Notes under the pieces: generated by a model | Seen by the model: only the letters and a program-made list of their open reading frames with translations | Databases searched by the model: none | What the model was told of the DNA's origin: nothing | Source: Girardia tigrina | Lineage: Eukaryota | Direction of reading: 5' to 3' | Assembly (NCBI GenBank): GCA_001938485.1 | Contig: MQRK01242767.1 | Span: 3,123-67,122, forward strand | DNA length: 64,000 nt | Shown: in pieces, positions 423 to 64,000 of the stretch | How the letters are laid out: each line of letters begins with the position of its first letter | How positions within the stretch are numbered: the first letter of the stretch is position 1 | Made by a program: the position numbers and the translations under genes

Positions 423-1844
423 GTTATTTAGCACAAATCTTTGGATCTTAAGACCAACATATCAACTGCACTCTTCAACTTTATTGACAGTGAATAAACG
501 ATGTACTGATGGCGTATTGGTTCAATAATCTCTATCTTCACTTACTGCACTCATTCTTTTAAAATATCATTTGTTCTGACAATGACCGCTAAAACATCAA
601 AATTAATAAAAAAATATCTAATAATTGTAATTCTCATTGATGAATGATTTCATTTGTAATGAATTACAATTCTTTTCAAATCCATTTATATAAATATTGA
701 CACATTAAAAGATTAAGAGACTTTCCGTAAACTCCGTCGTGTTATTGAGTCAAGCAAATCAAAATTTTGTATGAATTATAATTTAATGTTATTAAAATTC
801 CTGGCCCTAGGGGCAGCGAGGGTTGGTAAGTCAATTATTTTCGAGTATCTGAGACCATAATTTTCTGTCAATTATCATACGATCCTAATTAATTTGCTAT
901 GGAACTACTTTGCTCCAAATGAGCTGTAAAGTAAATTTATTTTATTTATGTCATGGTCTTTTTTCCGCTTTCTCTGTTCGATTATTATTTCACAAGCGGT
1001 TGCAGATAAGCGAAAATTCTAATTCCATTCTTATGAGCTCTGTCGAGAAAACAGAGGAGAGCTATCTCGGCGGAATCTGATTTTTGGTCAGACATTTGTA
1101 GAAATAATTTCTCATATTTGTTATCAGATTTCAGTAAATTTTAAAGAAGAGTGTCGTGATATAAATATATTAGACACAACTATAATAATTGAAGGCGGAG
1201 TGGTAAAAGAGAAGCTTTTCTTTGACAAAGGTAGAAGGGCTGATGAACTTTCGTTCTAAAAGAACTGATTGAAGTAATTAAAAATGAAATTAAAAATTTT
1301 GATGTATAAAATTAATTTAAATGAGATAAAGTAATGGCAAGAAAGATAAACGAATCGTCACATCCGTACCAGAATAGCAGAATATAATCAATTAAGTTAA
1401 AATAGCTCGATTATGGATTATATTTTGAAGTGTCATGTAAAGGAAAATTAAGTTTTGATAATTAAGTTTTTGAAACCTAGTTTATACGTGTAAAATGATT
1501 CATCCAATCATATTAAAGTATTTTAACATAAGACGTAAATTATATAATGGTCTTCTAATTATATACACAATCGCAGTTGATTTAAATGCAGAACTGAGTA
1601 TGCCAAGAAGGCGAAACATATTTTCTATAGATAAACATTCAAAATGGTGTTATTGTCTTTATTATCACATTTGCCATTAATTGATCAAAATGTCGAATTA
1701 AAAAAGTTGTAAAAGGTTTCCTTGAAATTTTAACAGAAAACTAAGCTAACTAAATTTTAAGAAGTTATTTCTATATAACCAAATATTAAATATTACATAG
1801 GTTTATTATTATTTATTTAAAAAGTTTGATCCTTTGATGTGCTG

Positions 1845-14190: not shown

Positions 14191-16544
14191 TTGGAAAAAT
14201 TATTTGAAACTTGTTTAATCTTGAAATATGCTCCAAAAAAGCAGTGTCTATTAATAAGAGGGACGATTGCAAAACATATTTTTACTCTAAAATTTCTTCC
14301 TCTTTATGAGGAATATTATGAAAGGTATTTATTGCTTGTTGTTTGGTATGTTGTTTTAGGATTGTATTGCTCCACCCAGATGGAAGATTGATATCTTAAA
14401 TATTTTAAAATGTCAGACTTTATGATTTATTTATTCATAAAGAGAAACAATATATATTTTTCAATCGTTACGCAACCTTTTTCAAATATTCAATTTTAAT
14501 TGATTTGACTCAGATTCTACTTTCGTCTTCGATATGTAAATTTAACATAAATTTATTATTTTTTAAATGTATTTGAAGTTATAAATTATTTGTATCTCGA
14601 TCAGCGAAATTAAATCCCTTATTCTTAAAGAATTTTTTCAATTCCAAAAATTTGATTTCTCGTCCTTTTCAAAATCTCTCTAATAGTCGTCGTCTGAACT
14701 CTGCTCGCAATTGCCGTTTTCTCTTTGTCCTCCATGCATTCTCCAAGGTATTTGATCTTTGTACGATCTGAATTCTAAATGGTTAATGTCAGTTTTTTGT
14801 ACTTTGGTATTATGTACCGTGTTTTCCATTATACGTCAATTTATCAATTAGAAAAACTGTCATATGATTGGACAACTGACTTTGGGTGTATAAGCATGGT
14901 TTTAAATGCTTTATTAGTAATGCTCCTACTAATTCCGCACTTTTTGCCCAATATTTACTCAATTCGGTGAAAGTTAGAGATACTAATAAATAATTTGTAA
15001 ACTTATTTACAGCTTAAATACAAAATTTTATGTTTATATTGATAGAAATAAAATGTGTGTACATTTGTTAAGATAGAAAACGTTTTCTTTGTATTTAATC
15101 CACAATTTCATCAAAAATTCTTGACATAACTATTTACAAATATAAACATGGTGCACGATAAATATGGAATTTTATGCTTCTCAGGCAAGCGATATTGCGT
15201 TTCTCAAGCAGCAGGATGAATGTCAATAGACCGCTACTAGAAAGATTCAAAGTAACCGCCATACATTCGAACACAAGCTTTATCTCTCTAGTGGAAATTT
15301 GTACCAAGCCATAAGTTACTATGAGCTGATATCATCACATGCTTTCGTTTTATATATAACTAAAGAGAATCAATTTGTCTGTGCAGTATAGCAACCTCTC
15401 TGCTTGAAATTGGACCATATGCTGAAGTCAATTTTTAGCCATCGCGTGATGTCCGTTATGAATTCTAAGACCTGCGATGGGGTATAATCTTGTTGAAAGC
15501 TCTGTGGTCCACAGTGGAATTTGGAATTGGCCTATATCATAAATAGTCCACTTGATAATTTTTTCAAAATACATAACATTACTGAATTTGATCAAACAGA
15601 CTCCAGCAAGAAGCTCTACTATCTGTAGAAAGTAAGAGCCAACTATAAATTCAGTATTGACAGAAGATTAGAAACTTTAAGGCAATAGTGACTAGGTTTT
15701 CCGAGAATTGCGCGATCACTGCATTGGGAAAAATGACTTGATCAAAGCTTTTGCCCATACAAAAAGCATTTATGCTCTTTTAAGACGTTTATGCATCATT
15801 GACACATAAAACATGTGGGTTTTTCTGGTGCTGTAATGGAAAAGTTTCAGATCATTCCGGACAATGTACCGAAGGATTCAATAAGAGATACCCTGCTTAT
15901 TCACTATCTGACACATTAATCCGCTGCACCTTCTTTTTGATGTTGATTTTGAAGCTATGGGAAGTTTACTCATCATGGACGTCTACTTTTTAGGACGCCA
16001 TTGACTTGGAATTTCTCGTTGAACTGTTAGCAGATGCGACGAATAATTATTATTCTAATAGTCGACTAATTTTCTGTAACTGTATTTCTTATCTAATTCA
16101 GTTAACTATAATTTGGTGATGGATGCATTTCATAAAATAAAATCCAAGTAAAAGGCAACCGATCTTTAAATATTTCTATCAATGAGCAAAGGCATCCGAT
16201 CTCTACCTATATATATTCAAACTGCTCTCGATCCATGTCATTGTTTTTACAGGAACTTTTTAAAGTGCTGCAACCACTGACACCATAAAATTGCGTGGTC
16301 GTTTCCGCCTTCTTATTTTGGTTGGATAGAAATATCTTAAAACATTAAAAAGATTTATTAAAAAATACTAATATTTCAATTTATTTTTCAAAAAATTATA
16401 TTATTATATTTTTACAAAAAATATACTTTTAATAAATTTTGCCTTTCAAAGCATTTTCTAAGTACCAAAAAATTCAATTATATTAACTATTAAGCAAAAG
16501 TTTTAGTAATATAATCTAAATTAAAGTAAATTTTAATACAAATA

Positions 16545-18009
16545 CTTAGGCTGTCCCAAAAGTCCTCAGGTGGCCTTTAAAAACACAGTAATATTTTACC
16601 AAATTTAACCAAATTTGGACTGAATATTATTCAGACTGTCATAAATACTGTGTTAAAATTTCAAAGTATAAAATTAAAAAAAACTAAAATTTTGTTTTAT
16701 TAAAGTATTGAAATTTTAAAAGTGCAGCGAATTCAAATCAAGCGGTTTTTAACAATGAAACCAAATAAATGTTTCCAACGTTATTTTGTTCTAACTCAAA
16801 GTAAAAGAGGATTCTCTGCTTCAGAAATTCTTCAGCAACTTCAGCAGGCACGGGAAGACGCAAATCACCCAGCACTGAAAACTATTCAACAATGGTTTAC
16901 TGATTTTAAAAAAAGAACAGCGGACGTCCTTCGACGATTCATCAAGAAGTGGCAGGACGTCATTAATAGACGATGAAAAGATTAAAGCAGTCAAAGAAGT
17001 GATTGATGAAGCTCCAAATGCGTCTTTGTGTTATATTGAAAATGAACTTTCTTTAAGCAAAAATACAGTCCACAAAATTTTGCGTGAAAAACTTCATTAC
17101 AAAACAGTTTGCTCTGTTTGAGTCCCTCACGAACTTTCTGCTGCTAACAAACAACAATGCATTAACACTGCAAAGCATATACGCCATGTAATTTCACAGA
17201 TGGGTGATGAAGCATATTCCAACATAGCGATCGAGGATGAGACATGGGTCTTTTTCCAAGGTAGAGGAAAGAAAGAAGATCACAAAGTTTGGATTTCTTC
17301 TAATGCTGTTTCACAAAAAGTGATAAAGCCATCGCCAATGACTGATAAAAAATCTCTTGCTTTCGTAACCTTTACCTGCAACAAACGTTTTAATGTAAAA
17401 GCACTGTGAACTTTGTTCATGACACCGGTGAAAAATGGCGGACACTTAGATCTAACAGTATCAAGCTAACGGAACTTAAGTGGTGGCATGATAATGCAAG
17501 ATCTCATTCTAGCAAAGAAACAACTCTTTTTTTTTGAAAGAAGAAAAATTGAAAAAAATTATCAATGGCCCTATAGTCCAGATTTCAATCTGTGACAGAT
17601 TCTTGTTTTCAAAAATGAAGAAAAGTTTTAAAAATCATGTTTTCAAATCACATGAAGAAATTGAAGAAGCTTGTAAATTCTTTTTTAATTCCTTATCAAC
17701 AGTAACATTAAAAAATCAACTAGATAAACTTTTTAACTATTGTCAGTTGGCTATTGACAACAATTGTGAATATGTTGTTGCTTAAGAAATTTTTAAAATA
17801 TTTTTTTAAATAAATTTTTAAATTCGCTGCATCTATTTTTTTTGTTGGTTAATAATATTATTTTTTTGGCAAGTTTCAAATTTTATGCTTTGAAATTTTA
17901 ACACAGTATTTATGACAGTCTGAATAATATTCAGTCCAAATTTGGTTAAATTTGGTAAAATATTACTGTGTTTTTAAAGGCCACCTGAGGACTTTTGGGA
18001 CAGCCTAAG
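16545..18009 (+). mobile_element. Mariner-like (DD34D) transposon with long TIRs; transposase pseudogene
   Basis: TA TSD and 122-bp perfect TIRs. Motifs (W)VPHEL, EDETWV, HDNARSH, YSPD..CD. D-to-D spacing is 34 after correcting frameshifts. Confidence 0.95.
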
Positions 18010-19764
18010 TATGTTAATTTGTTATATGTTTAAAGTGAAGTATAATTTTTAATTTGATTTAATAAATAATAAATATATTTAAAAATAAAATATAATTTTC
18101 TTTTATAAAAGTTTGTTGAAATTTCAACTTTATACCTTATACTTTCTCAGCTGAAGAGTATTCCTGCTCGGATAAGTGGTCATTGAACGCATGAAGGAGT
18201 TCATCAAGGACTTCAGAATCGAAATTCTCAAGTTCCGCTTTTTCCTTCTCTATAATGTCTGGTTCTTTTATCATATTGAGTAACGTCGTCTTTAGACCTA
18301 GATCTTTATTGATAATAATTTAGTTTATTTTCTTGATTCATTGAACAAGAGATCGTTATTTGACAAATCATCTTTTTCTATGATCTTCAAACTGGCCAGG
18401 ATACAATTACTACTTTTGGCCATGTTCCGAGCTACGCTACTAGGAGAGCAATGAGTAGTACCGTTTTGTCCAGCATGACCTTTTCAAATCTTTGGCCAAT
18501 GACTTTTAATGATTCATTATAAGTGTTGTTGTTGACCCTGTTGTTCTTAGTGTCATAGGGACATTTTACATTCCTCAGATATCCTGTGTTTTGTCCTGGT
18601 GCCACAATTTTCTTAATGCGTTCAAATTTAAAATAAATTGCGATTCAATTTTCTTTTACCTAATATTTTAATTAATCTCGTTATTACATAAAACAAAAAT
18701 TTTAAGTTAACAAAACAAAATAATTGGCTCAAATTTTTTATCAGAAATATTTATTTTTAATTTTTTTTAAAATAAAAAAAATTATAAAAACAATTAATAC
18801 ATTAATAAAATTTATTAAAACAATTTTATTATTTTTTTACTGATTGTAATCAAAAAATCTCAACAGTGTTTCATAGCGTATTTCTGACATTGAAATGGGC
18901 TGAGCAAATTTATTCAGATTTTATTATCGAAATTTCAATAAAATTTTGTTTTATTTTCTCTTCATTAATCGATATATTTTCTGGAAAAAATGTTTTTTGT
19001 TCTTTCAATTTATTTATTACAAAAAAAATTTTTTTATTGATTTTTAAAATTTTTTTCTGAATATTTGTTAAAATATTTGTTTTCAAAAAAATAATTTTTG
19101 AATATTTTTATAGAATTTTTAATTAATTTAAATGAAAATTTACAACTAAAAATCTAATTAAAAATTCATAATAATAAAATTAAATTTAGATGAAAAAATA
19201 ATATTTCAGTTTCAAAATAAAAAAAATAAACTGATATTTTAGGATAATTTAGAAGCAGTAAAATTCAATAAGTAAATTTATCAAATGTGAAATATAAAAT
19301 AAGTAAATAAATATGCAAAATTAATATTATTATGAGCAGTTAATTGAAATTTTCACTTCGATAAAATAATTTATTATATTTTTTAAATTTGGAAGTTTTT
19401 AAAAATTAAATAAACACAAAAAGTTTTAAAATTAAAAAGGATCTTAAAAGGTGTGATATGAAATTAATGGATGATATTAAAAATAATAAAAACGTGATTA
19501 ATCATTTTTTTGTTTAAATATTCATTGTTATTTATGTTGTTTTTAAAATATATGTTTATTAGTTACCAATTATTGCATTTATAATTATTATCAATCTGAG
19601 CATATAACAAAAGGAAAGCCAAAAAGTGACATACTTATCAAATATAAAAAAATGTTTACAAATGTGTAACAATTGATAAAAATTTGGAAATAAGAATTTT
19701 AAAAATATTTTATAAAAATTTTTAGTTATAATTTTAAAAAATTAATTTTATAATTATAAACAAA

Positions 19765-20003
19765 AACACGCCATTTGTTAAATTTATTTTTTATGACAAT
19801 TAATTTCGACGGTATAACCGTCATCGTCAGGTCTCAAGAAAGAAATGAATTTTAAATCTACTTATATAGGCAAGCAGTGATTATGTCATCAATGGATTAT
19901 TATGTCATCTAAAAACGCTTAATAGGGTTTTCGAGAGACCCGTTTGCACATTAATCTTAGGATCTAAAGATCTGATATAAAGCGCTTCACAGGCCACCAA
20001 GTT
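19765..20003 (-). mobile_element. Penelope-like 3' fragment (GIY-YIG C-terminus + pLTR)
   Basis: CEALYIRSLDPKINVQTGLSKTLLSVFR*, followed by TATATAA, a hammerhead and AATAAA. Confidence 0.85.
19795..19833 (-). ncRNA. Minimal type I hammerhead ribozyme
   Basis: GAC-CUGACGA-U-GACGG(UUAUA)CCGUC-GAAA-UUAA-UU-GUC. Confidence 0.85.
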
Positions 20004-20045
20004 ATTAAACAAAAATAACACCATTTTAATTTTAAATTTTTATTG

Positions 20046-20083
20046 GAAAACATGTTTCGCCACTTTTGTGGCATCTTCAGTTC
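20046..20083 (-). ncRNA. Minimal type I hammerhead ribozyme
   Basis: GAA-CUGAAGA-U-GCCAC(AAAA)GUGGC-GAAA-CAUG-UU-UUC. Confidence 0.88.
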
Positions 20084-20146
20084 TGTATTTAATTACAAAG
20101 TTATTGTTTATATAGAAAGATGACCATTACGTCACAGTGTGTTACG

Positions 20147-20515
20147 TCAAAATACTCTAATATGATTTGACGAATCACTTTGCACATTTAGACTAGGTTT
20201 ACAAAACTTTATAAAGAGTGCTTCAGTAATTGTCCTTTCATAATTGTAATCAAAGTTACTAATAAAAACCCGAAAATCATTATCAAATACCCTCCATTGA
20301 GTTCCATGACATTTCACTATGTGGTTCAAAATTGAGATTTTTCTACTTGATTGGGTATGTTCTGCAATTCTAGTACGGAGGTGACGATTTGTCTCTCCAA
20401 TGTACAAGGATTCACACTTGTGACATTTATATTGGTAAACTAAATTTGCTTTCATACCCAATTGTGTTTTAGATTTATTTGAGAAGCAATTAGAAATTTT
20501 ATTAGTTAGAAACAA
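20147..20515 (-). pseudogene. GIY-YIG endonuclease domain, inverted copy
   Basis: LVYQYKCHKCESLYIGETNRHLRTRIAEH..EALFIK..PSLNVQ. Confidence 0.9.
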
Positions 20516-20869
20516 TACTTTAATTGTAACACCTACTGGGGCCTGTTTTTCTAAATTCGTTTAAAATCCCTAGCACCTTCGGAATATGGAATTTTTAAAT
20601 AAATTTTTTTGAATTAATCACTTCCTCAGTTGCATTCAAATTTTTATTAATTTTGTCTTTTGATTTTAAATAAATTGACTCCACAGTATTTTTAATGATA
20701 TTATTTAAATATTTCTTATTATAACCATTAATACTAAGTCTATTATGAAGAGTATCAATTTCTTTATCAAAAATTTCAAAAGAAGAAGTTAAACTCCAAA
20801 ATTGTTATTGATAACAAGAGGAAAAATGGTTTACCAATTCCCATTAAAGATGAAAAAAATATTAATTTA

Positions 20870-21916
20870 ATGATATACAATTTTATAAAAAGTAATGATT
20901 TAAATTCTACTCTTAAAAACAGTTTACTAGCTCAAGGGTCACAACCTTCTAAGTTATACGGTCTTCCAAAAGTACACAAAACAGACATCCCGATGAGGCC
21001 TGTGTTGTCAATGATTGGAAGTGCACAATATAATGTTGATAAGACTCTTGTTAAATTATTAAAACCATTAATAAATAATCCTTTAGAATGTAAGGAAAGT
21101 TTTGAATTCGTAGAAAAGATTATAAATTTAGAAGTTAATTCGGAAAGTGAAACTATGGTCTCATTTGATGTGGTAAATCTTTTCACTAATATCCCATTAG
21201 AGGAGACGATTCAGTTATGTGATGATCTTTGGGATGAATTGGTTGAAGATAAATCAAAATCAATGAGTACTAAAGCCCTGAAAGCCTTGCTTGAATTCAG
21301 CACTAAGAATGTTCCCTTCTCGTTTAATGATGATTGGTATATGCAAATTGATGGAGTTGCAATGGGTTCTCCATTGGTTTCGTCAATGGCTTCAATTTTC
21401 TTACAAAATTTGGAGCAAAAATTTAAAAATTTTACAGGGGAATTACCAATCTTCTATACCAGGTATGTAGATGATACTTTTCTGATATTTAAAAAGAAGG
21501 AAGATGTGAATAGTTTTTTAAACTTTATNNNNNNNNNNNNNNNNNNNNNNNNNNNNNNNNNNNNNNNNNNNNNNNNNNNNNNNNNNNNNNNNNNNNNNNN
21601 NNNNNNNNNNNNNNNNNNNNNNNNNNNNNNNNNNNNNNNNNNNNNNNNNNNNNNNNNNNNNNNNNNNNNNNNNNNNNNNNNNNNNNGTTTCTGTGACCCA
21701 AAATATAATAGAAATATGATTAAGGGTCTAGTGCATAGAGTTTGGAGTTTAACTTCTTCTTTTGAAATTTTTGATAAAGAAATTGATACTCTTCATAATA
21801 GACTTATTATTAATGGTTATAATAAGAAATATTTAAATAACATCATTAAAAATACTGTGGAGTCAATTTATTTAAAATCAAAAGACAAAATTAATAAAAA
21901 ATTTGAATGCAACTGA
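20870..21916 (+). pseudogene. Penelope-like reverse transcriptase (spans an N gap)
   Basis: LYGLPKVHK..RPVLS, SFDVVNLFTNIP, QIDGVAMGSP, YTRYVDD. Confidence 0.95.
21529..21686. other. Assembly gap
   Basis: N run. Confidence 1.
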
Positions 21917-22026
21917 GGAATTGATTAATTCAAAAAAATTTATTTAAAAATTCCATATTCCGAAGGTGCTAGGGATTTTAAACGAATTTAGAAAAACAGG
22001 CCCCAGTAGGTGTTACAATTAAAGTA

Positions 22027-22395
22027 TTGTTTCTAACTAATAAAATTTCTAATTGCTTCTCAAATAAATCTAAAACACAATTGGGTATGAAAGCAAATTT
22101 AGTTTACCAATATAAATGTCACAAGTGTGAATCCTTGTACATTGGAGAGACAAATCGTCACCTCCGTACTAGAATTGCAGAACATACCCAATCAAGTAGA
22201 AAAATCTCAATTTTGAACCACATAGTGAAATGTCATGGAACTCAATGGAGGGTATTTGATAATGATTTTCGGGTTTTGATTAGTAACTTTGATCACAATT
22301 ATGAAAAGACAATTACTGAAGCACTCTTTATAAAGTTTTGTAAACCTAGTCTAAATGTGCAAAGTGATTCGTCCAATCATATTAGAGTATTTTGA
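22027..22395 (+). pseudogene. Penelope GIY-YIG endonuclease domain
   Basis: VY..C..C..YIGET.R.L..R..EH. Separated from the RT by a frameshift/stop. Confidence 0.92.
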
Positions 22396-22458
22396 CGTAA
22401 CACACTGTGACATAATGACCATCTTTCTATATAAACAATAACTTTCTAATTAAATACA

Positions 22459-22496
22459 GAACTGAAGATGCCACAAAAGTGGCGAAACATGTTTTC
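22459..22496 (+). ncRNA. Minimal type I hammerhead ribozyme
   Basis: GAA-CUGAAGA-U-GCCAC(AAAA)GUGGC-GAAA-CAUG-UU-UUC; TATATAA at 22428; AATAAA at 22498. Confidence 0.88.
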
Positions 22497-23076
22497 CAAT
22501 AAAAATTTAAAATTAAAATGGTGTTATTTTTGTTTAATGACGAAATTACCATTTGATTTAAAGAAATTAAATTTAATTATAAGTTAAGTTTTACAAATTA
22601 AATTGCAAAAAAAATTTAATAGATGATTTTTTGCGAAATGATTGAATTAACAAGAAATTTGTTTATATATTTGTAATATTGTCATTAATAAAGTTTTGTG
22701 ATAAATATGACTTCTGAAATTTCGGATAATGAAAATGGCATATACGATTCTTCCAATTATAAATCCTTCAAAGATCACAATTGTTAAGTTCATACATAGT
22801 AAACCCAAAATTAGTTGTCCCTAATTTTGTAAGCTTAGCAAAGTAATGAGTAAATGATAACATGATGATTTTGCTGAAACTTTATGAAAATTTTATTAAG
22901 ATGAGTTTGATTTATCTTATCATTATAGTAATCTTACTACTCTATAATAAATAAAGAATACAGTTATGTTTTTGGTTTCTTTAAAATCCATTTTCAAAGT
23001 CAAATCAAAGCTATATTTTAAACCGCGTACAAAAACTATTTATTATTTAAACAAACAATATTTAGTAATTAATCAA

Positions 23077-24270
23077 TCACACATAACTCTCCCCCTCTTC
23101 AAGAACCCGGCCAGCGTTTGAGCCATTCAATGTGCTTCTTTTCACCCCATTTGAAAATTGAATTTCAATCTGATGTGGTGAAATGATCATGAGGATCTTG
23201 TACGGTCCTTCGTATTGGAAATCGTTCTTCTTTCTCTTTGCAGGATCCACCCGGACGAGTACCATCTCTCCCTCTCTGAAATATCTCTTCCCTCGACTTT
23301 CTTTTTGGTACATCATCATTTTCTCAGCTGCAGCATCTGCATTGTCTCGAACCTCTTCATTGATCTGATCCTTGTCGTAACGTTTCGTTCCAGACACCGA
23401 ATGGATGTTTATTTTCCGGCCGTAAACGATTTCGAAAGGTGAGAATTTAGTCGAATCTTGCACAGTTGCATTGATACTGAATTCAATCCGAGGCAACAAT
23501 TCATCCCAATTTTTCTTTGTACATTTACCTTTCAATGACGTTGCGATCATATTTCTTACTGTTCTTATCACTCGTTCCGCTAAACCATTCGACTGATGTT
23601 GATATGGTGAGCTAAATTCTTGTTTGATCTGTAATTGTTCCAAGCTCTGGCTCATAAATGCACTCTGAAATTGTCTACCCCGGTCTGTTAGAATACTAAA
23701 TGGCTTGCCGAATTTATAGATCCAATTGTGCAAAATACATTTAAACATAGTGCGCTCATCTTGCTTCGAAACCGCGTTCAAACTGACTAACTTACTAAAT
23801 CGGTCTATAATGACTACCAAATATTTTTTTGTTGAAACTTTGTCCATGTGGGCAACATCTATCACTATCTGATCTAAAAAGTTTTGGCTCTTCCGAGGGC
23901 ATAGAATGTCTTTCGTTCTGGATTGATCAATTTTTCGCTTTGCACAAACGTAACACTGATTGATACATTCCTTTATGCACTCATATATGGCGTGCCAATG
24001 AAAATTGTCCTGTAAATACTTGAATATTTTCTTAATTCCCAGATGACAAAGATCGATGTGAACACCTCTAACGAATTCTTGTGCATAATTCTCTGGAATG
24101 ATCGTTAGTAGACCATTATTTTGTTCAACCATGACGAGACGGTCTATTAATTTGTACAGATAGCTTCCTTTGAAAACGTCAGAAAATTTTCTATTTCTAT
24201 CTGCAGATACTTCCATTGCTTCCATGATGACTGCATCACTGCGTTGTTTGTTTTCTAAAATCCCCATCAT
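23077..24270 (-). CDS. Gypsy integrase (HHCC zinc finger, DDE core, GPY/F), open for 397 aa
   Basis: H..CHLG..CYVC, IVIDVAHM, ILTDRGRQF, SNGLAERVIR, YEGPYKI. Confidence 0.9.
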   Translation of the reverse strand: MMGILENKQRSDAVIMEAMEVSADRNRKFSDVFKGSYLYKLIDRLVMVEQNNGLLTIIPENYAQEFVRGVHIDLCHLGIKKIFKYLQDNFHWHAIYECIKECINQCYVCAKRKIDQSRTKDILCPRKSQNFLDQIVIDVAHMDKVSTKKYLVVIIDRFSKLVSLNAVSKQDERTMFKCILHNWIYKFGKPFSILTDRGRQFQSAFMSQSLEQLQIKQEFSSPYQHQSNGLAERVIRTVRNMIATSLKGKCTKKNWDELLPRIEFSINATVQDSTKFSPFEIVYGRKINIHSVSGTKRYDKDQINEEVRDNADAAAEKMMMYQKESRGKRYFREGEMVLVRVDPAKRKKNDFQYEGPYKILMIISPHQIEIQFSNGVKRSTLNGSNAGRVLEEGESYV

Positions 24271-24317
24271 GTTATTTATTCCATAAAGAGAATTCAGGTA
24301 TTTGATTTTTGAATTTT

Positions 24318-24587
24318 TTATTTGACTTCGATATGACTAGTTTCACATTGTGAGCAAAGTTTCTGCTTAATACGAGACAAGCCATATGCATTATTGTGTT
24401 CTTCACCTTTCCTGTATTGAAGAGTGAAGTCATATTCAGACAGATTTGCCAGCCATGTTTGAAATTGTGGGCTTATCGGTGTCTTCGTGGTGTTCATGAA
24501 GACCAAAGGCTTGTGGTCTGTGCGGGTAATGAACCGTTTCCCGTATAAATATTGATTAAAATGTAAGACGTATTCATGAAGAGCCAA
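24318..24587 (-). pseudogene. Gypsy RNase H C-terminal part
   Basis: HFNQYLYGKRFITRTDHKPL..WLANLSEYDFTLQYRKG..NAYGLSR. Confidence 0.9.
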
Positions 24588-24886
24588 ACTCTGACAAACA
24601 ATCCAACAGTAAATGAGTATCGGGCATCGGAAACGAAATCTTGTCTTTCACAGCATTTAACATACGACAGTCGACGCACATTCTTATGGAGCCATCTTTC
24701 TTACCCACGATTACCAGCGGTGAGTTCCATGGACTTTTGTATGGCCGAATAATGTTCGACTACCATAAATTATGTATCATTTCATCAATCTTACTCTCCA
24801 AATGCATCGGTTGTCGGCGGTGATGTTGGCTTATTGATACATTTCTTGTCACAATGTGATGTTGGATCTTCCGAGTATGTCCCAAA

Positions 24887-25384
24887 TCAAACTTTGAAGC
24901 CATGATATATATTTCCAAATTCACAGATAAGCTGTTGAAGAGCTTTCTGTTTGTGATTCTTGTACTGTTCCAGTGCTAAACTTGTCCGCTCCTCATCAGT
25001 ATGAGTATTCTTCAATAAATCTGCGTCAATATTATTAACTTCTAATAGTTGTACTCCAAACATCTGCATAGTGTCAATACCGCCAATGAATGGTGGATAT
25101 ATCTTTTTCACAACGACCACCTTGATTTTCCTCAACTTTTTGTTCCAACGAATATCTAATAAAACAACACCCATGGGCATTTCTGTACCGGTCGAAAACA
25201 CACCGCTTAATCGAACTTCTGATTCTGAAAGTCTCGGTTCTCCAATCTTCCACCAATAATCTTCATTTATCACCGTAACCGATGCTCCTGAATCCCACAA
25301 CATCTCTAAACAAACACCTTCCACCTCTACCATACTCCCCATTCTCCCATCAGTTGACTTCCGCATCTCGTCCCGCTTTTCCAC
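24887..25384 (-). pseudogene. Gypsy aspartic protease
   Basis: MLWDSGASVTVI..FIGGID. Confidence 0.85.
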
Positions 25385-25479
25385 ATTCCGATTTTGCTAT
25401 CATCATTTATTCCAATCCCATTGACGAAATGTAAGCAACGGGATCGCTCCGGTTTTTTCCGGTTCAACATCATGTAAAA

Positions 25480-26535
25480 TTAATTCATCCCCGTGTCGTA
25501 AATTTCATCATAAACACATAAAATCGTCCGTGGCCTCTGATAACTGCTGTTCTGCAAAAGACTACATTCCTTAAAACAATGACCAGATTTACCGCATATT
25601 AAATATTTATCCTTCAATTGGCATTGAAAACGTCTGTGATCATTTTCCCTGCAACAAAAGTACTGACCCGGTTTCAGTCGCTCCTCATGCAGTGGGGGTA
25701 GTCCCCGTATTCTATTATAGAATCTTCGAGCTATATGTTTCAGAGAAACCGAAGGCGGCTGTCTCACCGGCGTTTGTCGGAATTCAGAAATGACCGATTG
25801 TATATGACTAATCCGGTTGGAAAAGTCCCAATCTATGAATCTCTCATCCGTTGATCTTCTGAGACCAAAATTAGACTGCTGAAATTGCTTTGTTGGTTGG
25901 TATTTCACAGCTTGAGCATAATTTTGGGATTCTTCTGCTTGATATTTGTCTTATTATTAAAAGCGCTTACTTCCATTTTCTCATCTTCCGAGATCTCTCG
26001 GTTCTCGTAGACTTTCGCCAGTGTCCTCATATCTTCTCTCTTCATTTCCGGTTTCAGAGCCAGTGAATCCCTCAGACCGGTACTGAGTCTAAAACACTGT
26101 TAATTAGTTTCTTTACCCGAATTTCAAACGTGGCAAATCTCTCTTTTGGCTCTTGCTTAACATTCGCCAGTTCCATGAAAATATCTAAGATTGACTTCTT
26201 CATCATAAATGTGTCACGAAACCATTCTCGAGCTTCCACCTGAGTCATTTCATCCATTTTTGGATCCTTCCATAATTCCCCAGCTTCTTCAGACAATAAT
26301 AAATCAAATGCACTCACCAAAGGCAAGTCATTTAATGATATTCCTCGATATCCTTTAGCCATTTTTCCGCTTCTTGCGAATCTCTACCGTCAAACTTACG
26401 GACATTGAAATTGAGAATTTCTTGAGTCTTCTTCGGCAGCGACGCAAGCAAAATATTTCTTTGTTGGCTTCTCGTAATTGCGTTGATATTTTCGGCGTGG
26501 TCACCAGTTACGTTTTTGGTTTCTTTAAAATCCAT
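25480..26535 (-). pseudogene. Gypsy gag, frameshifted, starting inside the 5' LTR
   Basis: MDFKETKNVTGDHAEN.., RKFDG..AEKWLKDIE, KQEPKERF..FE, and degenerate zinc knuckles. Confidence 0.8.
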
Positions 26536-27499
26536 TTTCAAAGTCAAATCAAAACTATATTTCAAACCGCGTACAAAAACTATATATTATTTAAACAAAC
26601 AATATTTAATAATTAATCAATCACACATAACTAATACAGTAATAAATATTCTTTACCAGAACTTATATCAGGTGAACAATATTTATCACTACATATTTTT
26701 TAATAAAAAATGTTAAATATATTTTATACAAATCTAATTACAATAATTAAACAAAATTATTTAAAAGATTAGCAAACTATTAACAGAGAAGAGGAAATCA
26801 ACAAGATTAATCCAATATTGGATAAAGATATCTGATGAGGAAGAATAAGAATAAGTATAACTTACAAGATTGACAAAATCGTTACTCTTAAACAATTATA
26901 TCTTATAATCTAGGAGAGTATTTTTAATATTTTTCGATTATCATATAGAGTGAATTTAGAAACACTCTGTTGGGAAAATTTTTTTTTCGCATTTTTTCCC
27001 AAATTTGAGCTAAATGCTCTTCAATTGTATAATTTGGCATATTTCCCTGTAATTCATATTCTTTGGGCATTGACAACTTATTAATTTCTTCGTTAAAAAG
27101 ATTTTCTTGGATCCATTCGACTCATTCAACTCCAGCATTATCTTCAATTATTGCAAGTACTTCATAATCATTTTTGTGATGTAACAAATTTTTAGACTCC
27201 TGTCCCCCTTTTTCACAAAGTGTCACACTTTCACAGACCCCCAACTACCCCCCTATGCGTTATGTATTTTACGAACGAGCCCTAATATATTAATATATAA
27301 ACTACAAAAAAGTTAATTCAGTAATTCTTCATCAATAATTCTTCCTTTCACTTTTTCCAGTCGATTTTAACTAAAGAAACTTTTTTTTCACCAAAAAAGC
27401 AGATCATACCATCAAACTGCTACCCCCAAACTGTTGGCTTTATACATTTTCCGAGGCAGGAAATTTACCGTTTAGTCTAAATATTTTTATTTCCAAAAA

Positions 27500-32604: not shown

Positions 32605-33154
32605 AAAAATATCTTAGAATTAAAAATGTCAAGAAAACAAAAATATTAAATATTTATTTTTAAGCAATTTTAAATATTGATTTTGAAAATAGTTTAAATA
32701 ATTTTTGAAATAAATTTTCGAAATAAATTTTCGAAATAAATTTTAAGGATTTTGAAAATTAAATCGAAAAGAATTTAATAGATTAATTTGGGTCGAGATA
32801 ATTAAATTAAATTAACAGGAAAATTTGTTTTAGAAATGTGAATTGTTATAGAAATAAAATTTTGGTGTTTGAAAAAATGAATTCGGATATAGACGTTGCA
32901 ACCACTTCTCACAATTAATATTAATACAATCTTGAAAAAATAATATATAAATATATATTTATGCCGAATTCACGAATTCAGTAACTTTTATAAATTTTTT
33001 TAATTCAATTTTGAAATTGATACTAACATTTACTATGAAAAAATATGTATTTAATATGAAAATTTATGAAAAATTATCAATTTAATTTGCAATTCAGCTT
33101 TTCCTCAAGGAAGAAAATTTACATTTGGAGTCAAATAAATTGGAGAAGAATAAT

Positions 33155-35244: not shown

Positions 35245-35699
35245 TTAATAAATCTATTTATTGTTTTATGTTCACATTAAAAATCAATTTTATATAAATT
35301 ACTTTTGTTACACTATTTTATAAACATCTCATTTTAACCTAATCTGTAAATAAAATGTAAAATATTGGATTATTAAATTGATTAGATTTCAAATTCGAAA
35401 ATTTTATGCACTCAACATTTTCTACTACTAACAATACTTATATGTCAGGCGTTTAGAATCAAGTGCCCCACATACAAGATATGCAGGTGCCCAAACTACG
35501 AAAGGTACAACATTATAGTTCAATATGTGCGAGGCCCAACGGCTAAGGTCTCAAAAACGTATGTTTCAGTATATTTTTATTAGCATCATGATGTTTTTCC
35601 ATAATTATAAATATTATATTGCTAATAAGTGTCGATGTATTACAAAAGTCTACGTTTGTCTTTTGTAATAATCTTGTAAAATAATGGTAAAATAATATA

Positions 35700-36620
35700 T
35701 GAAACTGAAACCTCAAAATAAACAGACATAAAGAATTCTGTATCTTTTAAGGCATTATTAGATATTTTGGCTTTTGAGGAGCATAAACTATCTGTCTAAT
35801 CTGAAATATACTGATGAGCAACAAAAATATTCTCTGTAGATTAAAGGTTTGGTAAATAGAGCTTGGTCTCTGTCTTCAACATATGTAAAAGCTGAAGCTA
35901 GTATTGATTGGTTTACTGAGCTTTGCATAAAAATGGCAATTCAAAATTGTTTCTGAAGAAATTAACCAATCAATTAATAGACAAATTAATTAATCAAGAA
36001 TTCGAAGGAAAAAATGATTTAAAACCTGATAAAGTATCTCATGGAAATTTGAATATTGGTGTACACTCTAATTGTTCCTTATTCAGAAGGTTTTAAAAAA
36101 TTTAAATCACCTATTTTAAAATCAATTTAAAAATCATCTCCAAAACTTCAAATTATTTTCAGTAATAAATCTCTAACTCCATTGAGTTTGTGCTCCAATC
36201 TCGTTTATCAGTTTTCTTGTTATGGGTGCAATGTCACATACATCTGAAAGACACCTTGTCTGTAAACGAATTCAGGAGCATGGACGATTAAGTAATGGCA
36301 GTATTGCTGGGCATATGGAAGTTTGTAGGTCGGATGTGAAAATTACTGAATTTAAATATTGTGTAGTTATTTTTAAAATTATTGGGAAAGAGTTTCTTGT
36401 GAAACATTATTGGTTAAATTACATAATCAATGTCCAATATAATTAATGTCCAAACAAGTGCTTCTTCCACTTTGTTAAGATTGTTTTATTAGCTATTACG
36501 TCATTTGATTACATAATCGTCATTTTAATATATAAGACAGCACAATTGTCGTTAATTAAGCCTGATGATTGTGGAAAATCCACCGAAATATATTGCAAGA
36601 ATAAAATTTAGTTTTTTTCA
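35700..36620 (+). mobile_element. Decayed Penelope-like 3' region with pLTR
   Basis: KGLVNRAWSLSS, NLVYQFSCYGCNVTYI, RIQEH, followed by TATATAA, a hammerhead and AATAAA. Confidence 0.85.
36559..36597 (+). ncRNA. Hammerhead ribozyme, partly decayed
   Basis: AGC-CUGAUGA-U-UGUGGA(AAA)UCCACC-GAAA-UAUA-UU-GCA; mismatches at the base of stem II and in stem I. Confidence 0.7.
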
Positions 36621-42824: not shown

Positions 42825-44699
42825 ATCTATGAATATATCTGTACGTTACAATCCACTATTAAAATATTTTAAATCACTTTCAAATAGATTTTATATATTT
42901 TGATTAAAATATTATTATGTATTTACATATATTAATATTTATTACTTAATTTTTAAGTTGATTAATTCGAATTTTTTATCTGGTACATGAAGCTAAAAAA
43001 ATAAATATTATTTTTGGAAAATTTTTGAAAATAGAAAATTTCATTTCAAAATAACGAAGAAAAGTTTTTTTTTAATTGAGTAATTTATTTGCAAAAAATA
43101 TCATCTGTTCACTGTTGCATCTCACATCTGAAAAGTGAAAGGATTTCATTAACCCTGGAAGTTTGAGCACCGCCAAACTTGCGTCGTTTAAAATAAAGCT
43201 GATTGATATTACTGCAGATTTCGACGTACATTTTAAGTCTCCTTATTTTCCTACTCATTGAAATTTGATTTTTCCCCTCTGCCAAACGTTTTCTTGCTGA
43301 TGATAATCTTTCAATCTCGGAAACGGCATATTTACTGTGGTTCACCTGAAGTCGTTCATCTCACATTCCAATCTATGACGAACAACTGAACACAAAAGCA
43401 ATATCTTTTGCAAAACAATTTGTAATTGAGGGAGTTTGACAATCATGGATTCAGAGTTAGGAACTTTGGGATAATATTTTATCTAGAGAGATTTGAGTAT
43501 TGGTCAATGATAACTTTGGTGACACCTAAAGCAAGCAACTATGTCACTAGTTCGACGCAATTTTTTTGTGATGACAAAAGTTATTTGTTCTGGTAAGTAA
43601 CTCCACACAACATTTTTACCTTGACAAATGATTATCTTCACAGAGAAAAGCATTATAAAGACGCATATCTATTCTTGATGATGCAAACATGGTAGGAAAA
43701 AAGTGATCATTGTTAGTAATAGAAAATTATTCGTTCAAGAGCATTTCGCAACCGGCATGTTCCAAACGAAGGAAAAAGGTAGCAAAAGAATAGGACTAGG
43801 AGCGGTGCTTTTTGGTGAGAATGTATTTAAACTTGATCTTCATTTGATATCGAAGAAAGTGTTCCAGCAACCCACAGATTCGAAATCTAATCTTTTGACT
43901 GCGACGTGGTACATATTCATAAAAGTTCCGAACGTAAAGAACTTTTATTAAGCAAGTTATTTCGATTATGATACCGTAAAGATTTCACATTAAATCTCCT
44001 TTTATCATTAAATGGACTCTCTAAGGATCGGTGGAGTGTCTCCAAGAACACAAAACTAAACTGCTTTCATTGACCTGAATTTACTGCTTTACTGACGGCT
44101 AGTGTCGACCTGACTCAATCATCGCCATCATGAGAAAAACTTGGTAGTATTTTTGAACTTATCTTTCATTTATTCAGTTTTCAAAATCATATGAGTAATA
44201 ATGACTTCATCTATGTATATTACGACGTCCTAATATCTGACGAAGGAAGAAAACGAAGAATATGGTGGTCAGGACGCAGAGGAGAAGTTGATAGCGAAGT
44301 TTTTGAGGTTTTTCAAAGTCCATTAGAAGCCATCAATATGGTAGAAATGTCCATTGACTCTTCATCAGTACATAAATTCTTTAACTAATTTCCGTGTGTA
44401 GATAAACTCTATTCTGTTCTTACAAACATTGTCATGTCATTTGTGAACCATAAAACTCTTCGTTACTATGTTAAATAAAATATTAAAATGTTTATAAAAG
44501 CGTGAATTTTGAAAAATTAAAACCCGTCTTTTTTAATAATACAAAATAAATATTTAAAACAAAATGACAATAAAAGTAATAAACAATTTTTATATTAAAA
44601 AATCTATTTAAGAAAACGATAAATATTTGTAAATTTGACAAGGGAAATTCGAAAGGGGAAGTAACATTGCAGGACATAGAAGACATTGTAAAGGAGACA

Positions 44700-44940
44700 A
44701 AAATTCACAACACGTTAAAATTCTATCCACTAAATTAATGAATTATTGGGAAAGAGACTCGTGTGAAGCGTTAAATGTAAGATCTTTGGATCCTAAAATT
44801 AACGCTTAAGCTGTACTCTGATGACATGTTGATTACATAATCATTAACTACACTATATAAGGTGATTTTGCTTGAAGAATCATTTGTTCTGACGATGACG
44901 GTTAAACCGTCGAAATTAATAAACTTTAGGTGGCTTCAGA
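44700..44940 (+). mobile_element. Penelope-like 3' fragment/pLTR
   Basis: NYWERDSCEALNVRSLDPKIN, followed by TATATAA and a hammerhead. Confidence 0.8.
44886..44924 (+). ncRNA. Minimal type I hammerhead ribozyme
   Basis: GUU-CUGACGA-U-GACGG(UUAAA)CCGUC-GAAA-UUAA-UA-AAC. Confidence 0.87.
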
Positions 44941-51220: not shown

Positions 51221-51387
51221 AAAATGTGAGTTTTGTAATTCTAATACTTCAGAAAATCAAGGATCTTGCGAGTTAACGACATAAATAGAAAGAAAACTTA
51301 TTTAAATGATATTATTAAGGAGCAAAATAGTTATTTGACAAGAATACTTCAATGAGTCGGATATATCTCTAGCGCGGTTATATAATA

Positions 51388-52611: not shown

Positions 52612-52649
52612 GAAAACATATTTCGCAACTTTTGTGATCTCTTCAGTTC
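52612..52649 (-). ncRNA. Decayed hammerhead in a pLTR remnant, same family as 22459
   Basis: GAA-CUGAAGA-GAUCAC(AAAA)GUUGC-GAAA-UAUG-UU-UUC; flanks match 22430-22510. Confidence 0.65.
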
Positions 52650-60585: not shown

Positions 60586-62904
60586 GTCTACTATTGAAAA
60601 AACTTTGAAAAAATTAAATACAATAAAAAATTTCGAAAATAATAAATTTACATCTGTTTTTTATTCATAATTATTTTGATTTTATTCGTTTGTGCAAGAA
60701 AATTTAAAAATCGTTCCTCAGAAATTTACTTAGGCAAAACTTGTTTAAATAATGTGTTTATTGCTGTTTAAATAAAAGTATCAAAAATGTCTTTGTCTGA
60801 ATTCTCATCAGAACATATTCCAAAGCCTAACAAAATGCATGCCCCAATTTTCATCACATGTGCTGCCATTTCCATGTTGAGGTTTTAACCTTGTCAAACA
60901 ACCCCCACGAATTATGAAGGATTATACATAATAAATTAATGTAAGCAAATATAAAATAATTTTTCCTTCGTTGTGAAAGTTTCCTTTTAATATTCGTAGC
61001 AGAAACTAATTAATAAATTTTGACATTATGACATGTTAATTAATGTGATTAATTTTATGGCATCAAGGCTTTACAAAATTATAATTATGATTAAATAATA
61101 GAAGAAATATTAATAAATATTTGATGATAAGATAAATAATATAGTTTTAATAGAAACGAAATGCATTCATTTTAAACGATTGTTCTATTAAATCAACATA
61201 TTTCGACGGATCAGTCGTCATCGTCGCAATACATTATGTACTCTGGAACTCGTCAAATCCGGACAAATTATCGGGGTCCCCAGAGACCCGGATTCCGCGA
61301 TCCAGACTGTACATTATTTGACTAATTTTATTAAAGACCTTATAGAAAAGATGCCTGATGTCTGAGTTACAATGTCTAGAAACAATTTTAAGAACCCAAA
61401 CTAAAAGAAAATACAATTAAATACATAGCAACATAAACAAAAGAAGTCCATTGAGCATCTCGTTAATTGTACATCAAGTGTTACCCTATATTCCTCGTCA
61501 GATGAAGGAACTTCCACTGGTCACAGAAGCATCTGGAAATAATTATTTTGAAGGATATTCGACCAATTTGTCAGAATACAATTTATAAACTTTGTTATTA
61601 ATACATTATTGTTTTCCGATTATGAGATATTATATCGTTAGACCGTGAAAAAATATATTATGTATTCTGATATAATTGAGATTGTATCGATATAAGACTA
61701 ATAAAGAAGGAAGAGCAGAATGATTAATGGGCCATAGCGAGAATACGCTAACGATTCCTATCCTCATGGTGTCCTGAGTCGACTGACGATAAATGTATTC
61801 CACTCGTCGGCCTACTCTAAACTGTTTCGGATCACTGTTCAAATGACAAATGTTTGCACATGAATTATTGAGAATTGTAATATTTACTAAAGGAAAAGGC
61901 CAGAAACAGAGGGCAGAATGTTTATGGTATTATCTCTATATTAATATGGTCTTGCTTCGGTGGACAATACAAATTGTAGTGATGGTCGCGTACACCTGGG
62001 TTGCCCGAGTGGATGGGCAGATATCAATTCGTCGATTCAGCCTTGGTCATCATGATCACCCCTTAGCGTCAATCATTCTATCACCTCAACAAGAACAACA
62101 TCAGTGAGAGAATTATAATTCAAAAACATAGATTTAAAATCAGAGAATGTTCCATCATTGTTAAGATCAGTCGGACGCAAGTTGATTTTCGGGCAGATAG
62201 AACTCTTCCGTCGGTAGTTCTATTTTGAAGTGGGTGATGCCATTCAGTTTCATGGTTAACAGGTCGATCGAAGATTCATCTTTAAGTTTGGTTTTTACAG
62301 AAGATGTCTCGGAAGACTGGGTAGGGCTGTATAAACCTAGGACGCTTCGACCGATATACTGGTCTTCGATTAATAAATGGTTTGTATGAGAAGTTAGTTG
62401 AGTCGCTAATTTTTTTACGAGTCACGAGTCGGGTCTCTAAAACATTTTACGAGTAAAGGTTCGAGTCAAGAAAATCTTCATATTTTACATTTCACAAGTA
62501 AGGACACTAAATATAGAAATGATCGATTGTTACTAAAAAGCAGTAAAGAGGAAATAGCAGTTACTAATAGCAGTAATTCAGAAATCCGCCCCACGTTTTT
62601 GGTTAGGTATAAAATTTCTCACATGTCTAGAAAAAAATTATTTTCCTCTTTTTAGTGCATTGGTAATGCTTGAAAAACGTGGTTGTTTTTATAAAAATTT
62701 TTTTGATTAATAATATTATTTTTTAATTAATTTATGAATATTTATTAATTATTTTGTTTCCTATTAGAAAGACCTGTTTTTACCACGTAAATATTAATGA
62801 TTTTGTTTACTGGTAATCTAAAAAAATCTTAACAAATAAATTATAAACATTTTAAAACTTTTTTTAATTTAAACAAATAAACGCCATTTAAAAATATATT
62901 TTAG

Positions 62905-62943
62905 GATAATATATTTCGACGGTTTGACCGTCATCATCAGATA
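62905..62943 (-). ncRNA. Minimal type I hammerhead ribozyme
   Basis: UAU-CUGAUGA-U-GACGG(UCAAA)CCGUC-GAAA-UAUA-UU-AUC; one stem I mismatch. Confidence 0.8.
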
Positions 62944-63416
62944 ACTGATTATGTTCTTTTTATTGGTTTTATATAAGAAATGAATGATTATACAATCACT
63001 TACGTAAGTCTAATCGAAAACTCTTAACAAATTAGTTGAGAGTGCTGTTTGAACATTTTATTTTTGGATCACATGATCTTATCAACAATGCTTCACATGA
63101 CACTCTCTCCCAATAATTTTTAAAATGCTTGCACAAAATCTTAAAATCATTTATGCTCATATTGCATTTACACGTTTTTTTATGCTCAGAAAAAAAACGT
63201 GTAAATGTAATATGAGCATAAATGATTTTAAGATTTTAAAAATTATTGGGAGAGAGTGTCATGTGAAGCATTGTTGATAAGATCATGTGATCCAAAAATA
63301 AAATGTTCAAACAGCACTCTCAACTAATTTGTTAAGAGTTTTCGATTAGACTTACGTAAGTGATTACATAATCATTCATTTCTTATATAAAAGCAATAAA
63401 AAAGAACATAATCAGT

Positions 63417-63455
63417 GATCTGATGATGACGGTTAAACAGTCGAAATATATTATC
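63417..63455 (+). ncRNA. Minimal type I hammerhead ribozyme
   Basis: GAU-CUGAUGA-U-GACGG(UUAAA)CAGUC-GAAA-UAUA-UU-AUC; one stem II mismatch. Confidence 0.8.
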
Positions 63456-64000
63456 CTAAAATATATTTTAAAATGGCGTTTATTTATTTATAATAAAAAT
63501 TGACATCTTTTTTCAAGTTTATTTTTCATTTAAAGTTCTAAAATATGTAATTAGATGAAACAACAAAGTTTTATAAAGTTAAATTAAAACATTATTCACT
63601 CAATTGACAATAATAATTTTTATTAATAATATTATAAATCTCATTTTAATTTTTACTAAATTTTAAAGTCAGTCAAGAAATCCGACTACATTTGAATCAG
63701 AAACATTTAGAATCCGAGTCATTTCTATTTTTCTTGAGTCCAGTCAATATTTTTTAACGAGTCACTTTAATAATTTTTCGAGTCGAGTCGGTTTGAGGAA
63801 TTTAAATCTCCAGGTTTCACTTCAGGATTCATAATATAAACAAGTAGAATTTATTTACTATTTAAAATCTTTTTAGAATACTTAAACAAATTAATAATCA
63901 CAACTTTCCCCTCTTTTATAATTCGTTATTTACTTTCCTAATCCACTATATTCTTCGACGAATTATGTTTCCATCTTTCAGATTCTGTAGTTCCAATTGG

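Follow-up and report, generated by a model that had tools for sequence, protein, structure and literature searches.

Where does the RNA of a ribozyme-bearing retroelement begin, and what would the ribozyme remove from it? Both questions are raised by the element that ends at 22541 in the 64,000-nt stretch of DNA analysed here (the window). The initial annotation had read its 3' end, or pLTR, as a fixed layout of bZIP-like sites, a TATATAA box, a hammerhead ribozyme at the expected transcription start and, usually, AATAAA, with self-cleavage that could remove the capped leader and define the 3' end of a unit-length template. What we find is a promoter variant, genuine and shared at clade level, in an element of a known kind; half of that reading holds. 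Taken as a whole, the evidence makes it probable that the pLTR is an upstream Pol II promoter, that the RNA starts just before an AUG-bearing minimal hammerhead, and that a cut would strip both cap and AUG.

Penelope-like elements in the window

The window is AT-rich eukaryotic DNA (GC 22-39% per 2 kb) crowded with transposon relics. The element under study and its partner copy comprise the following parts.

20738..21526, plus strand: reverse transcriptase (RT) part of a 5'-truncated Penelope-like ORF (Pfam RVT_1, E 3.7e-11; 96% identity to metagenomic P0001/P0002)
21982..22395, plus strand: C-terminal GIY-YIG endonuclease (Pfam GIY-YIG, E 4.4e-5)
20001..20654, minus strand: inverted 5'-truncated partner copy (654 nt, 98% identity; TATA box 20114, ribozyme C3 20080)

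An N gap (21529-21686) follows the RT part, and the ORF is broken upstream of the endonuclease; metagenomic P0001 (93-96% identical) has RT and GIY-YIG in one uninterrupted protein, whereas the window copy is broken. An ORF of RT followed by GIY-YIG, with a pLTR, is the published layout of endonuclease-positive Penelope-like elements, or PLEs (PMC8557442). The insertion end lies at 22538-22541, and no target-site duplication is evident around 20001-22541. As in PLEs generally, 5'-truncated copies stand beside an inverted partner and a pLTR, here in the 654-nt, 98% identical pair and in the pair at 62861..63499. The window holds no full-length copy, every copy in it being truncated or broken; direct partial tandems (pLTR-ORF-pLTR), which put the promoter ahead of a full ORF, are seen in the distant loci L061, L038 and L041. 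The element at 22462 (copies are named here by the position of C3 or core) and its relatives are the 3' ends of endonuclease-bearing PLEs. A protein tree (quick method, 30 rows, midpoint root, built without named reference elements) places all window copies in one clade, and the RT-endonuclease linker, checked with the Penelope/Poseidon clade in mind, has no conserved cysteines in the alignment summary.

Ten ribozyme-bearing 3' ends from about five families are present in the window. Beyond the pair described above, these are as follows.

19753..19997, minus strand: 3' stub of a second family (bZIP-like sites 19907 and 19888, TATA box 19868, C3 19830)
44592..44927, plus strand: internally deleted relic of a third family (site 44833, TATA box 44854, C3 44889)
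62861..63499, both strands: inverted pair of a fourth family (plus: sites 63352 and 63364, TATA box 63384, C3 63420; minus: TATA box 62975, C3 62940)
35789..36612, plus strand: decayed 3' part of a fifth family (sites 36496 and 36509, TATA box 36529, C3 36562)
1299..1665, plus strand: older sister of the 22462 family (about 73%); its degenerate core at 1594 is preceded by TATATAC at 34 nt, and it lacks AATAAA
52564..52679, minus strand: degenerate stub (86%) belonging to the 22462 family and truncated within the TATA box; core 52646
559..610, plus strand: degenerate ribozyme akin to 44889, core 576, without TATA box or bZIP-like site

The stub at 19753..19997 sits directly behind the 20080 copy in the same orientation (19753-20149), with the promoter and AUG of that copy directed into a foreign endonuclease end. 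At 44592-44803 a protein motif of the N-terminal third is fused directly to the endonuclease end, most of the ORF having been deleted; a 5' pLTR upstream of this relic was considered and rejected.

The surroundings contain other mobile elements. A Ty3/Gypsy-type LTR retrotransposon relic on the minus strand (22961-26632; integrase 23077-24336, protease 24887-25396) has 128-nt direct repeats that are 96% alike, and related relics lie at about 3059-5052 (plus), 33131-34267 (minus) and 50517-51220 (minus). A Tc1/mariner-type transposase (DDE_3, HTH) occupies 57539-58264 on the minus strand, and long inverted-repeat pairs resembling DNA transposon ends occur at 16535-18019, at 49009-54151, and at 34809-35251 with 56990-57373. 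A tandem array of a 21-nt unit (41-352) is GC-richer than its AT-rich surroundings.

TATA-to-ribozyme spacing

Read from the endonuclease stop to the end of the insertion, the 22462 copy carries the following features, all on the plus strand.

22393..22400: distal bZIP-like site TGACGTAA, assigned by sequence
22408..22416: proximal bZIP/D-box-like site TGACATAAT, 20 nt before the TATA box
22428..22434: TATA box TATATAA, 34 nt before ribozyme C3
22456..22458: predicted transcription start, an A at +28 or +30 from the TATA box, each after a pyrimidine
22459..22496: minimal type I hammerhead, supported by covariation (alignment A4)
22468..22470: AUG formed by core A9, an extra U and G10.1, the likely start codon of a downstream copy's ORF
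22494..22541: 3' extension past the cut, with the first ORF codons including a conserved Lys-Trp (22516-22521)
22498..22503: AATAAA, in-frame Asn-Lys at codons 11-12, unsupported as a poly(A) signal

The five TATA-to-CUGA distances first reported are exact: 34 nt (22428/22462), 35 nt (44854/44889), 36 nt (63384/63420), 33 nt (36529/36562) and 38 nt (19868/19830). Inverted partners supply two more, 34 nt (20114/20080) and 35 nt (62975/62940), which are not independent of the same insertions. Among the 40 TATATAA sites on both strands of the window, seven have CTGANGA 28-47 nt downstream; all seven lie at 33-38 nt, and with the two inverted partners discounted they represent five independent insertions. 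The other 33 sites have neither a hammerhead core nor a strict bZIP 8-mer at those distances. By chance, TATATAA falls 33-38 nt upstream of a random position in 240 of 125,102 cases (0.19%; 0.35% in AT-rich stretches).

The spacers were also said to be unrelated, and they are: in 28 pairwise comparisons of eight spacers, z is at most 2.4 in 27, the exception being the sister pair 22462/1594 (z 4.3). Since the spacers cannot be aligned between families, the motifs and their distances have outlasted the intervening sequence. The TATA-hammerhead spacing in these families is real. The word "fixed" calls for a restriction: the degenerate copies 576 and 52646 lack a full TATA box, and most distant PLE families lack the module.

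D-box-like sites upstream of the TATA box

Motifs of bZIP type had been placed loosely between the ORF stop and the TATA box. They are there, and more tightly positioned than claimed: the 8-mer T[TG]AC[GA]T[AC]A occurs 18-23 nt upstream of six of the 40 TATATAA sites, in every case at 20-21 nt and in every case among the seven linked to a core. When variants and two relatives from outside the window are included, by a pattern drawn up after the copies had been inspected, a proximal site lies 19-22 nt before the TATA box in all ten TATA-bearing copies. These ten copies use seven spellings of the site. Nine of the ten match a spelling on a list of 18 functional mouse D-boxes derived from DBP/E4BP4 ChIP-seq, given in the part of PMC6687812 drawn on here, and the tenth is TGACGTAA; the reverse complement of the TGACATAAT site is D-box#4 in that source. 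At the distal site, the endonuclease stop TGA (22393-22395) supplies the first three bases, an overlap of ORF stop and site that the 19830 family shares. The likely factors for these putative D-boxes are of the PAR-bZIP, NFIL3 or C/EBP type.

Predicted transcription start

Pol II transcription starts about 30 nt downstream of a TATA box. A start at +30 would leave a leader of 6-14 nt, with only 3-8 nt before C3, a length that fits the 3-bp stem I. Initiator signals are weak. A pyrimidine-A step is found at +28 to +30 in nine of ten copies, which is commonplace by chance in AT-rich DNA; a TCAKT initiator is found in four of ten (none at 19830) and also at three of the 33 other TATATAA sites. 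Judged on these motifs and distances, the pLTR very probably carries a TATA-type Pol II promoter that starts a few bases before the core. The proposal that the RNA begins at the ribozyme thus survives in the form of a TATA promoter with a predicted start just ahead of the core, but its poly(A) counterpart does not.

Contigs matching the window occur in 24 sequencing runs from 13 studies, and four of them were compared with it; such contigs cannot show RNA starts, RNA ends or expression. In one RNA-library contig the match to the element stops at 22535 and a TA repeat follows, which looks like another insertion rather than an RNA end.

Extent among relatives

A metagenome scan confirmed 155 relatives; a hammerhead is present in 40 of the best 80 of these 155, which were kept. 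For cluster counts, the metagenome relatives were pooled with 20 genome-contig loci and 30 of the 75 hammerhead-pattern matches in G001 (membership in PLEs being established for only some of these), giving 85 cores in 48 clusters; L055, L056, L098-L100, exact duplicates and cores whose contig began less than 100 nt away were left out. Viral contigs gave 131 pattern matches and no relatives.

With TATAWAW sought at 33-38 nt, the window scores 2.5 of 4 clusters (0.03 in shuffles), the closest relatives 2 of 3 (0.12 expected; 1 of 500 shuffles as good), and G001, an unrelated host, together with one other MAG locus 2.5 of 23 (0.12 expected; 0 of 500). The 18 distant metagenome clusters are not enriched at this distance (1.0 versus 0.3; 133 of 500 shuffles); in a wider window of 30-46 nt, chosen after the data had been seen, they score 6.0 of 18 versus 0.8. 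No set shows significant enrichment in the control windows at 47-63 and 64-80 nt. Two metagenomic relatives, L001 and L003, repeat both spacings. The bZIP-like sites are confined to the window's clade, with 2.75 of 4 clusters in the window, 2 of 3 in the closest relatives, 0.5 of 18 in distant metagenome clusters and 0 of 23 in the G001 set. A genome-wide histogram of the spacing had been proposed initially as a check; across related loci, used in its place, the 33-38 nt position is kept in the window clade, L001 and L003, is enriched in the G001 set, and is unenriched in distant families. The complete module is thus a trait of the clade; a minority of the other families place a TATA box 30-46 nt upstream of the ribozyme.

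G001 (L083-L097, L101-L130) is labelled a bacterium, yet it contains Penelope-like ORFs and its 75 hammerhead-pattern matches compare with 8 in a reversed control; this content points to eukaryotic contamination of that assembly. At L085:4401-4437 and in L113/L114, opposite-strand cores overlap or lie less than 100 nt apart, as small palindromic insertions. A U3-A8 core variant, of a kind described in PMC4209133, occurs in L005, L011, L013, L037, L058, L081, L083, L084, L086, L088 and L096.

Upstream or internal promoter

The TATA box and bZIP motifs could instead have been inherited within the clade and serve some other function, or no function at all, with transcription driven from an internal promoter as in Drosophila virilis Penelope. 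The only experimentally mapped PLE promoter is indeed of that type: it lies internally, has Inr and DPE but no TATA box, and is accompanied by a 75-bp intron 46 nt past its start (Schostak et al. 2008, in the portion of PMC2377424 used here). In addition, the window copies all come from one clade and are not fully independent, and most distant families lack the module. Against this stand the persistence of the motifs and of both spacings across spacers diverged past alignment, the variants of the bZIP-like site that stay within the known binding repertoire, and the recurrence of a TATA box at similar distance in an unrelated host. A putative TATA box has also been noted in rotifer PLE pLTRs, 20 bp before an Inr-like TCACT (2013, in the part of PMC3846280 considered). 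We regard an internal promoter as improbable.

Compared with D. virilis Penelope, the elements described here lie upstream of the predicted start, a TATA box is present in seven of ten window copies, and the 33-38 nt to the core leave no room for an intron; in D. virilis Penelope, the ribozyme follows the intron (PMC4209133, part consulted). The two systems agree in that transcription starts in the pLTR and the 3' end of an upstream copy serves the downstream copy (PMC2377424, same portion).

A minimal hammerhead ribozyme

The 22462 ribozyme consists of a 3-bp stem I (22459-61/22494-96), the core CUGAAGA (22462-68), an extra U (22469), a 5-bp stem II (22470-83), GAAA (22484-87), a palindromic helix III (22487-92) and U17 (22493), after which the cut is predicted. 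In 11 aligned copies (10 distinct), 95.3% of cells are paired and nine of 11 pairs show two-sided changes; none of 500 shuffles paired as well, a rank that is not a probability given that the aligned hammerheads are related sequences, and slid controls reached 28-51%. Stem I has 3 bp and stem II 3-5 bp, and helix III is a 6-nt palindrome, shortened to 4 nt in L003. The extra base after A9 is T in 11 of 11 aligned copies. With CUGANGA and GAAA cores, that extra base, a G10.1-C11.1 pair and a palindromic helix III, the copies have the features of minimal hammerheads; an Rfam scan of them gave no match at the gathering threshold. Residue N17 is U or A here in place of the usual C, and cutting may be slow.

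The closest published counterparts are the minimal-hammerhead PLEs of Cervera and De la Pena (2014, PMC4209133). As described in the portion of that source used here, they share with our copies an RT plus C-terminal GIY-YIG ORF and a minimal type I ribozyme with an extra base between A9 and G10.1, a short stem I and a palindromic helix III; that portion describes no promoter and no promoter-ribozyme spacing, and our copies have a stem II of 3-5 bp and a stem I of 3 bp.

A probable start codon inside the ribozyme

The frame opened by the AUG at A9-U-G10.1 (or at A6-U7-G8) matches the N-termini of full-length relatives (821-841 aa) in the same protein clade. The core-AUG frame matches in seven of ten window copies, where 0-18 of 500 shuffles did equally well; part of this agreement between peptides is dictated by the ribozyme sequence, and the starts of the reference proteins were machine-called and judged from protein alone. 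The frame fails in the three copies with the most decay (1594, 576 and 52646), and at 36562 another frame did about as well. Beyond the ribozyme, nine of ten aligned rows keep Lys-Trp, the exception being 36562, which stops short of it. The most likely ORF start lies within the ribozyme, at the A9-U-G10.1 AUG. The AAATGG(C/T)G that follows the ribozyme was rejected both as a YY1 site and as a start codon; it encodes the in-frame Lys-Trp.

Other relatives give direct cases of a probable start elsewhere in the ribozyme. At L002:1807-1890, L038:830-900 and L041:288-360, the likely start is not the core ATG but one within helix III, which precedes the cut by 4 nt; it opens 135 and 125 codons in L038 and L041, and in L002 it matches the start of P0150. 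L061 is a counter-case, with the first ATG of its long ORF 212 nt after the core.

Cleavage had been expected to remove a capped leader. The leader would indeed go, but the cut would take the start codon and about eight codons with it.

An AUG-then-cut layout and an internal start of reverse transcription are also found in the Poseidon element PAc of Anolis carolinensis (Frangieh et al. 2024; the part of PMC11167929 used here), whose cut lies 26 nt after the start codon. Reverse transcription of PAc starts 111-118 nt into the ORF; the copies here end about 70-75 nt after the AUG. Rotifer PLE pLTRs likewise hold the first ORF codons and come with an inverted partner copy and tail (PMC3846280, in part).

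AATAAA and copy ends

The hammerhead was further proposed to lie just before the poly(A) site, so that cuts at both ends would yield a linear unit-length template. In three of the five window families, AATAAA does occur 5-10 nt after the cut and is followed by a U/GU-rich stretch. The description "usually" is nevertheless too strong: AATAAA lies within 40 nt after the cut in five of ten copies (three of five families), or 2.0 clusters versus 0.9 expected from shuffles, and 25-28% of AT-rich positions have one nearby. It is missing at 1594, the sister of 22462, and at 63420 and 62940; at 44889 it spans the cut site and belongs to the ribozyme itself. In four of the five copies that carry it, AATAAA is an in-frame Asn-Lys. 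A canonical poly(A) signal would be conserved beyond chance and outside the ORF, and this one is neither; near-chance occurrence, mostly as Asn-Lys codons of the ORF start, gives no support to a poly(A) site next to the ribozyme. Polyadenylation at this point would also cut the mRNA of a 5' pLTR within about 60 nt of its start.

Copy ends bear on the template directly. Both inverted pairs share sequence for 41-48 nt past the predicted cut, ending about 70-75 nt after the AUG. Because genomic copies run this far beyond the cut, their RNA template must have carried an intact ribozyme, either as read-through RNA or as a ligated circle. Cleavage did not form the 3' end of that template: for these copies, a linear RNA that stops at the cut is excluded. 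We judge the combination of a ribozyme just before the poly(A) site and a linear unit-length template to be highly improbable.

Does the ribozyme cut?

Genomic copies with an intact ribozyme and 41-48 nt beyond the cut are also what a rarely cutting hammerhead would leave. The same promoter and AUG could then operate with a ribozyme that serves mainly as a protein-bound structure, uncut read-through RNA being the template. PAc supports this: in that element, the one PLE reconstituted in vitro, catalytic mutants insert normally, cleavage is not needed for insertion, unprocessed RNA is the main substrate, and no RNA-seq ends fall at the cut, according to the portion of PMC11167929 considered. 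Minimal hammerheads are only weakly active in vitro, cutting as a dimer (PMC4209133, part used). Among single-strand folds of the window copies, stem I is unformed in two of six (44889, 63420), and the 6-nt palindrome of helix III cannot close alone. On the other side, the core and the palindromic helix III are kept across families with two-sided changes, as expected under selection for dimer cleavage, and protein-assisted cleavage was seen in vitro (PMC11167929, same portion). We consider rare cutting of this kind unlikely, and the odds of a real in vivo role for the cut only a little better than even.

Proposed mechanism

The favoured reading, an upstream promoter with a cut that strips cap and AUG, would run as follows. 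The pLTR presents, in order, the ORF stop codon, one or two D-box-like 8-mers, a TATA box 19-22 nt after the proximal one and a ribozyme core 33-38 nt after the TATA box. In a tandem, this promoter would drive the downstream copy from about +30, with room only for the 3-bp stem I and a 6-14 nt leader. Translation would, on strong indications, begin at the core AUG and run across stem II and helix III to enter the ORF. Reverse transcription of the observed copies began 41-48 nt downstream of the cut and copied both intact ribozyme and promoter. A start downstream of the 3' ribozyme copies the promoter, and the upstream promoter is thereby regenerated in a partial tandem. The pLTR would thus resemble a retroviral U3, with the promoter outside the RNA 5' end and the uncut RNA as mRNA. 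Least surely, the ribozyme might cut only as a dimer or with protein help; an RNA once cut would no longer be translated, and a pair of cuts followed by ligation might give a circle whose copying yields partial tandems. Self-cleavage, ligation to a circle and more-than-unit copying were proposed in the part of PMC4209133 used here. The lack of bZIP-like sites and of 33-38 nt enrichment in distant families counts against the favoured reading.

A more specific version is tentative. In it, the clade would have an LTR-like promoter under clock- or stress-type bZIP control through a D-box two helical turns before the TATA box, and the mRNA would be a one-piece switch with a 6-14 nt leader and an A9-U-G10.1 start; the extra base would be U because it belongs to the start codon, and cleavage of a pLTR dimer would remove cap and AUG and commit the RNA to be a circular template.

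Relation to known systems

The element class, the minimal hammerhead, a TATA box and Inr in a rotifer pLTR, an AUG within the ribozyme and an internal start of reverse transcription are each published separately. The rotifer study predates discovery of the ribozyme, and the part of PMC3846280 considered here contains no mention of ribozymes or bZIP-like sites and no spacing statistics; for PAc, the corresponding part of PMC11167929 assumes a pLTR promoter without mapping it. Neither the spacing of D-box, 20 nt, TATA box, 33-38 nt and ribozyme, nor bZIP sites in pLTRs, nor a contrast between an upstream TATA type and the internal TATA-less promoter of D. virilis Penelope was found in the literature searched, supplements aside.

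The plant LTR retrozyme NbRZ1 offers a parallel outside PLEs, with an upstream Pol II promoter in the repeat and a ribozyme in a short ORF that removes the capped 5' part; its start could be mapped only in a ribozyme-dead mutant, because the ribozyme cuts that part off (PMC12029980, portion used). It is a non-autonomous plant LTR element rather than a PLE, and the same portion mentions no TATA box. Self-cleavage can promote cap-independent translation in other systems (PMC13725137), whereas here the cut would remove the start codon.

Significance

The role of the hammerhead in PLEs is still described as open (PMC8557442; PMC11167929 in the part used). For this question, the gain is a sharper anatomy rather than a new system: the layout gives exact coordinates for the predicted RNA start, the AUG likely used and the cut that would inactivate it. 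It suggests that PLEs have two promoter types, one internal, as in Drosophila, and one upstream with a TATA box and host bZIP sites; the upstream type would tie the activity of this clade to a named family of host regulators.
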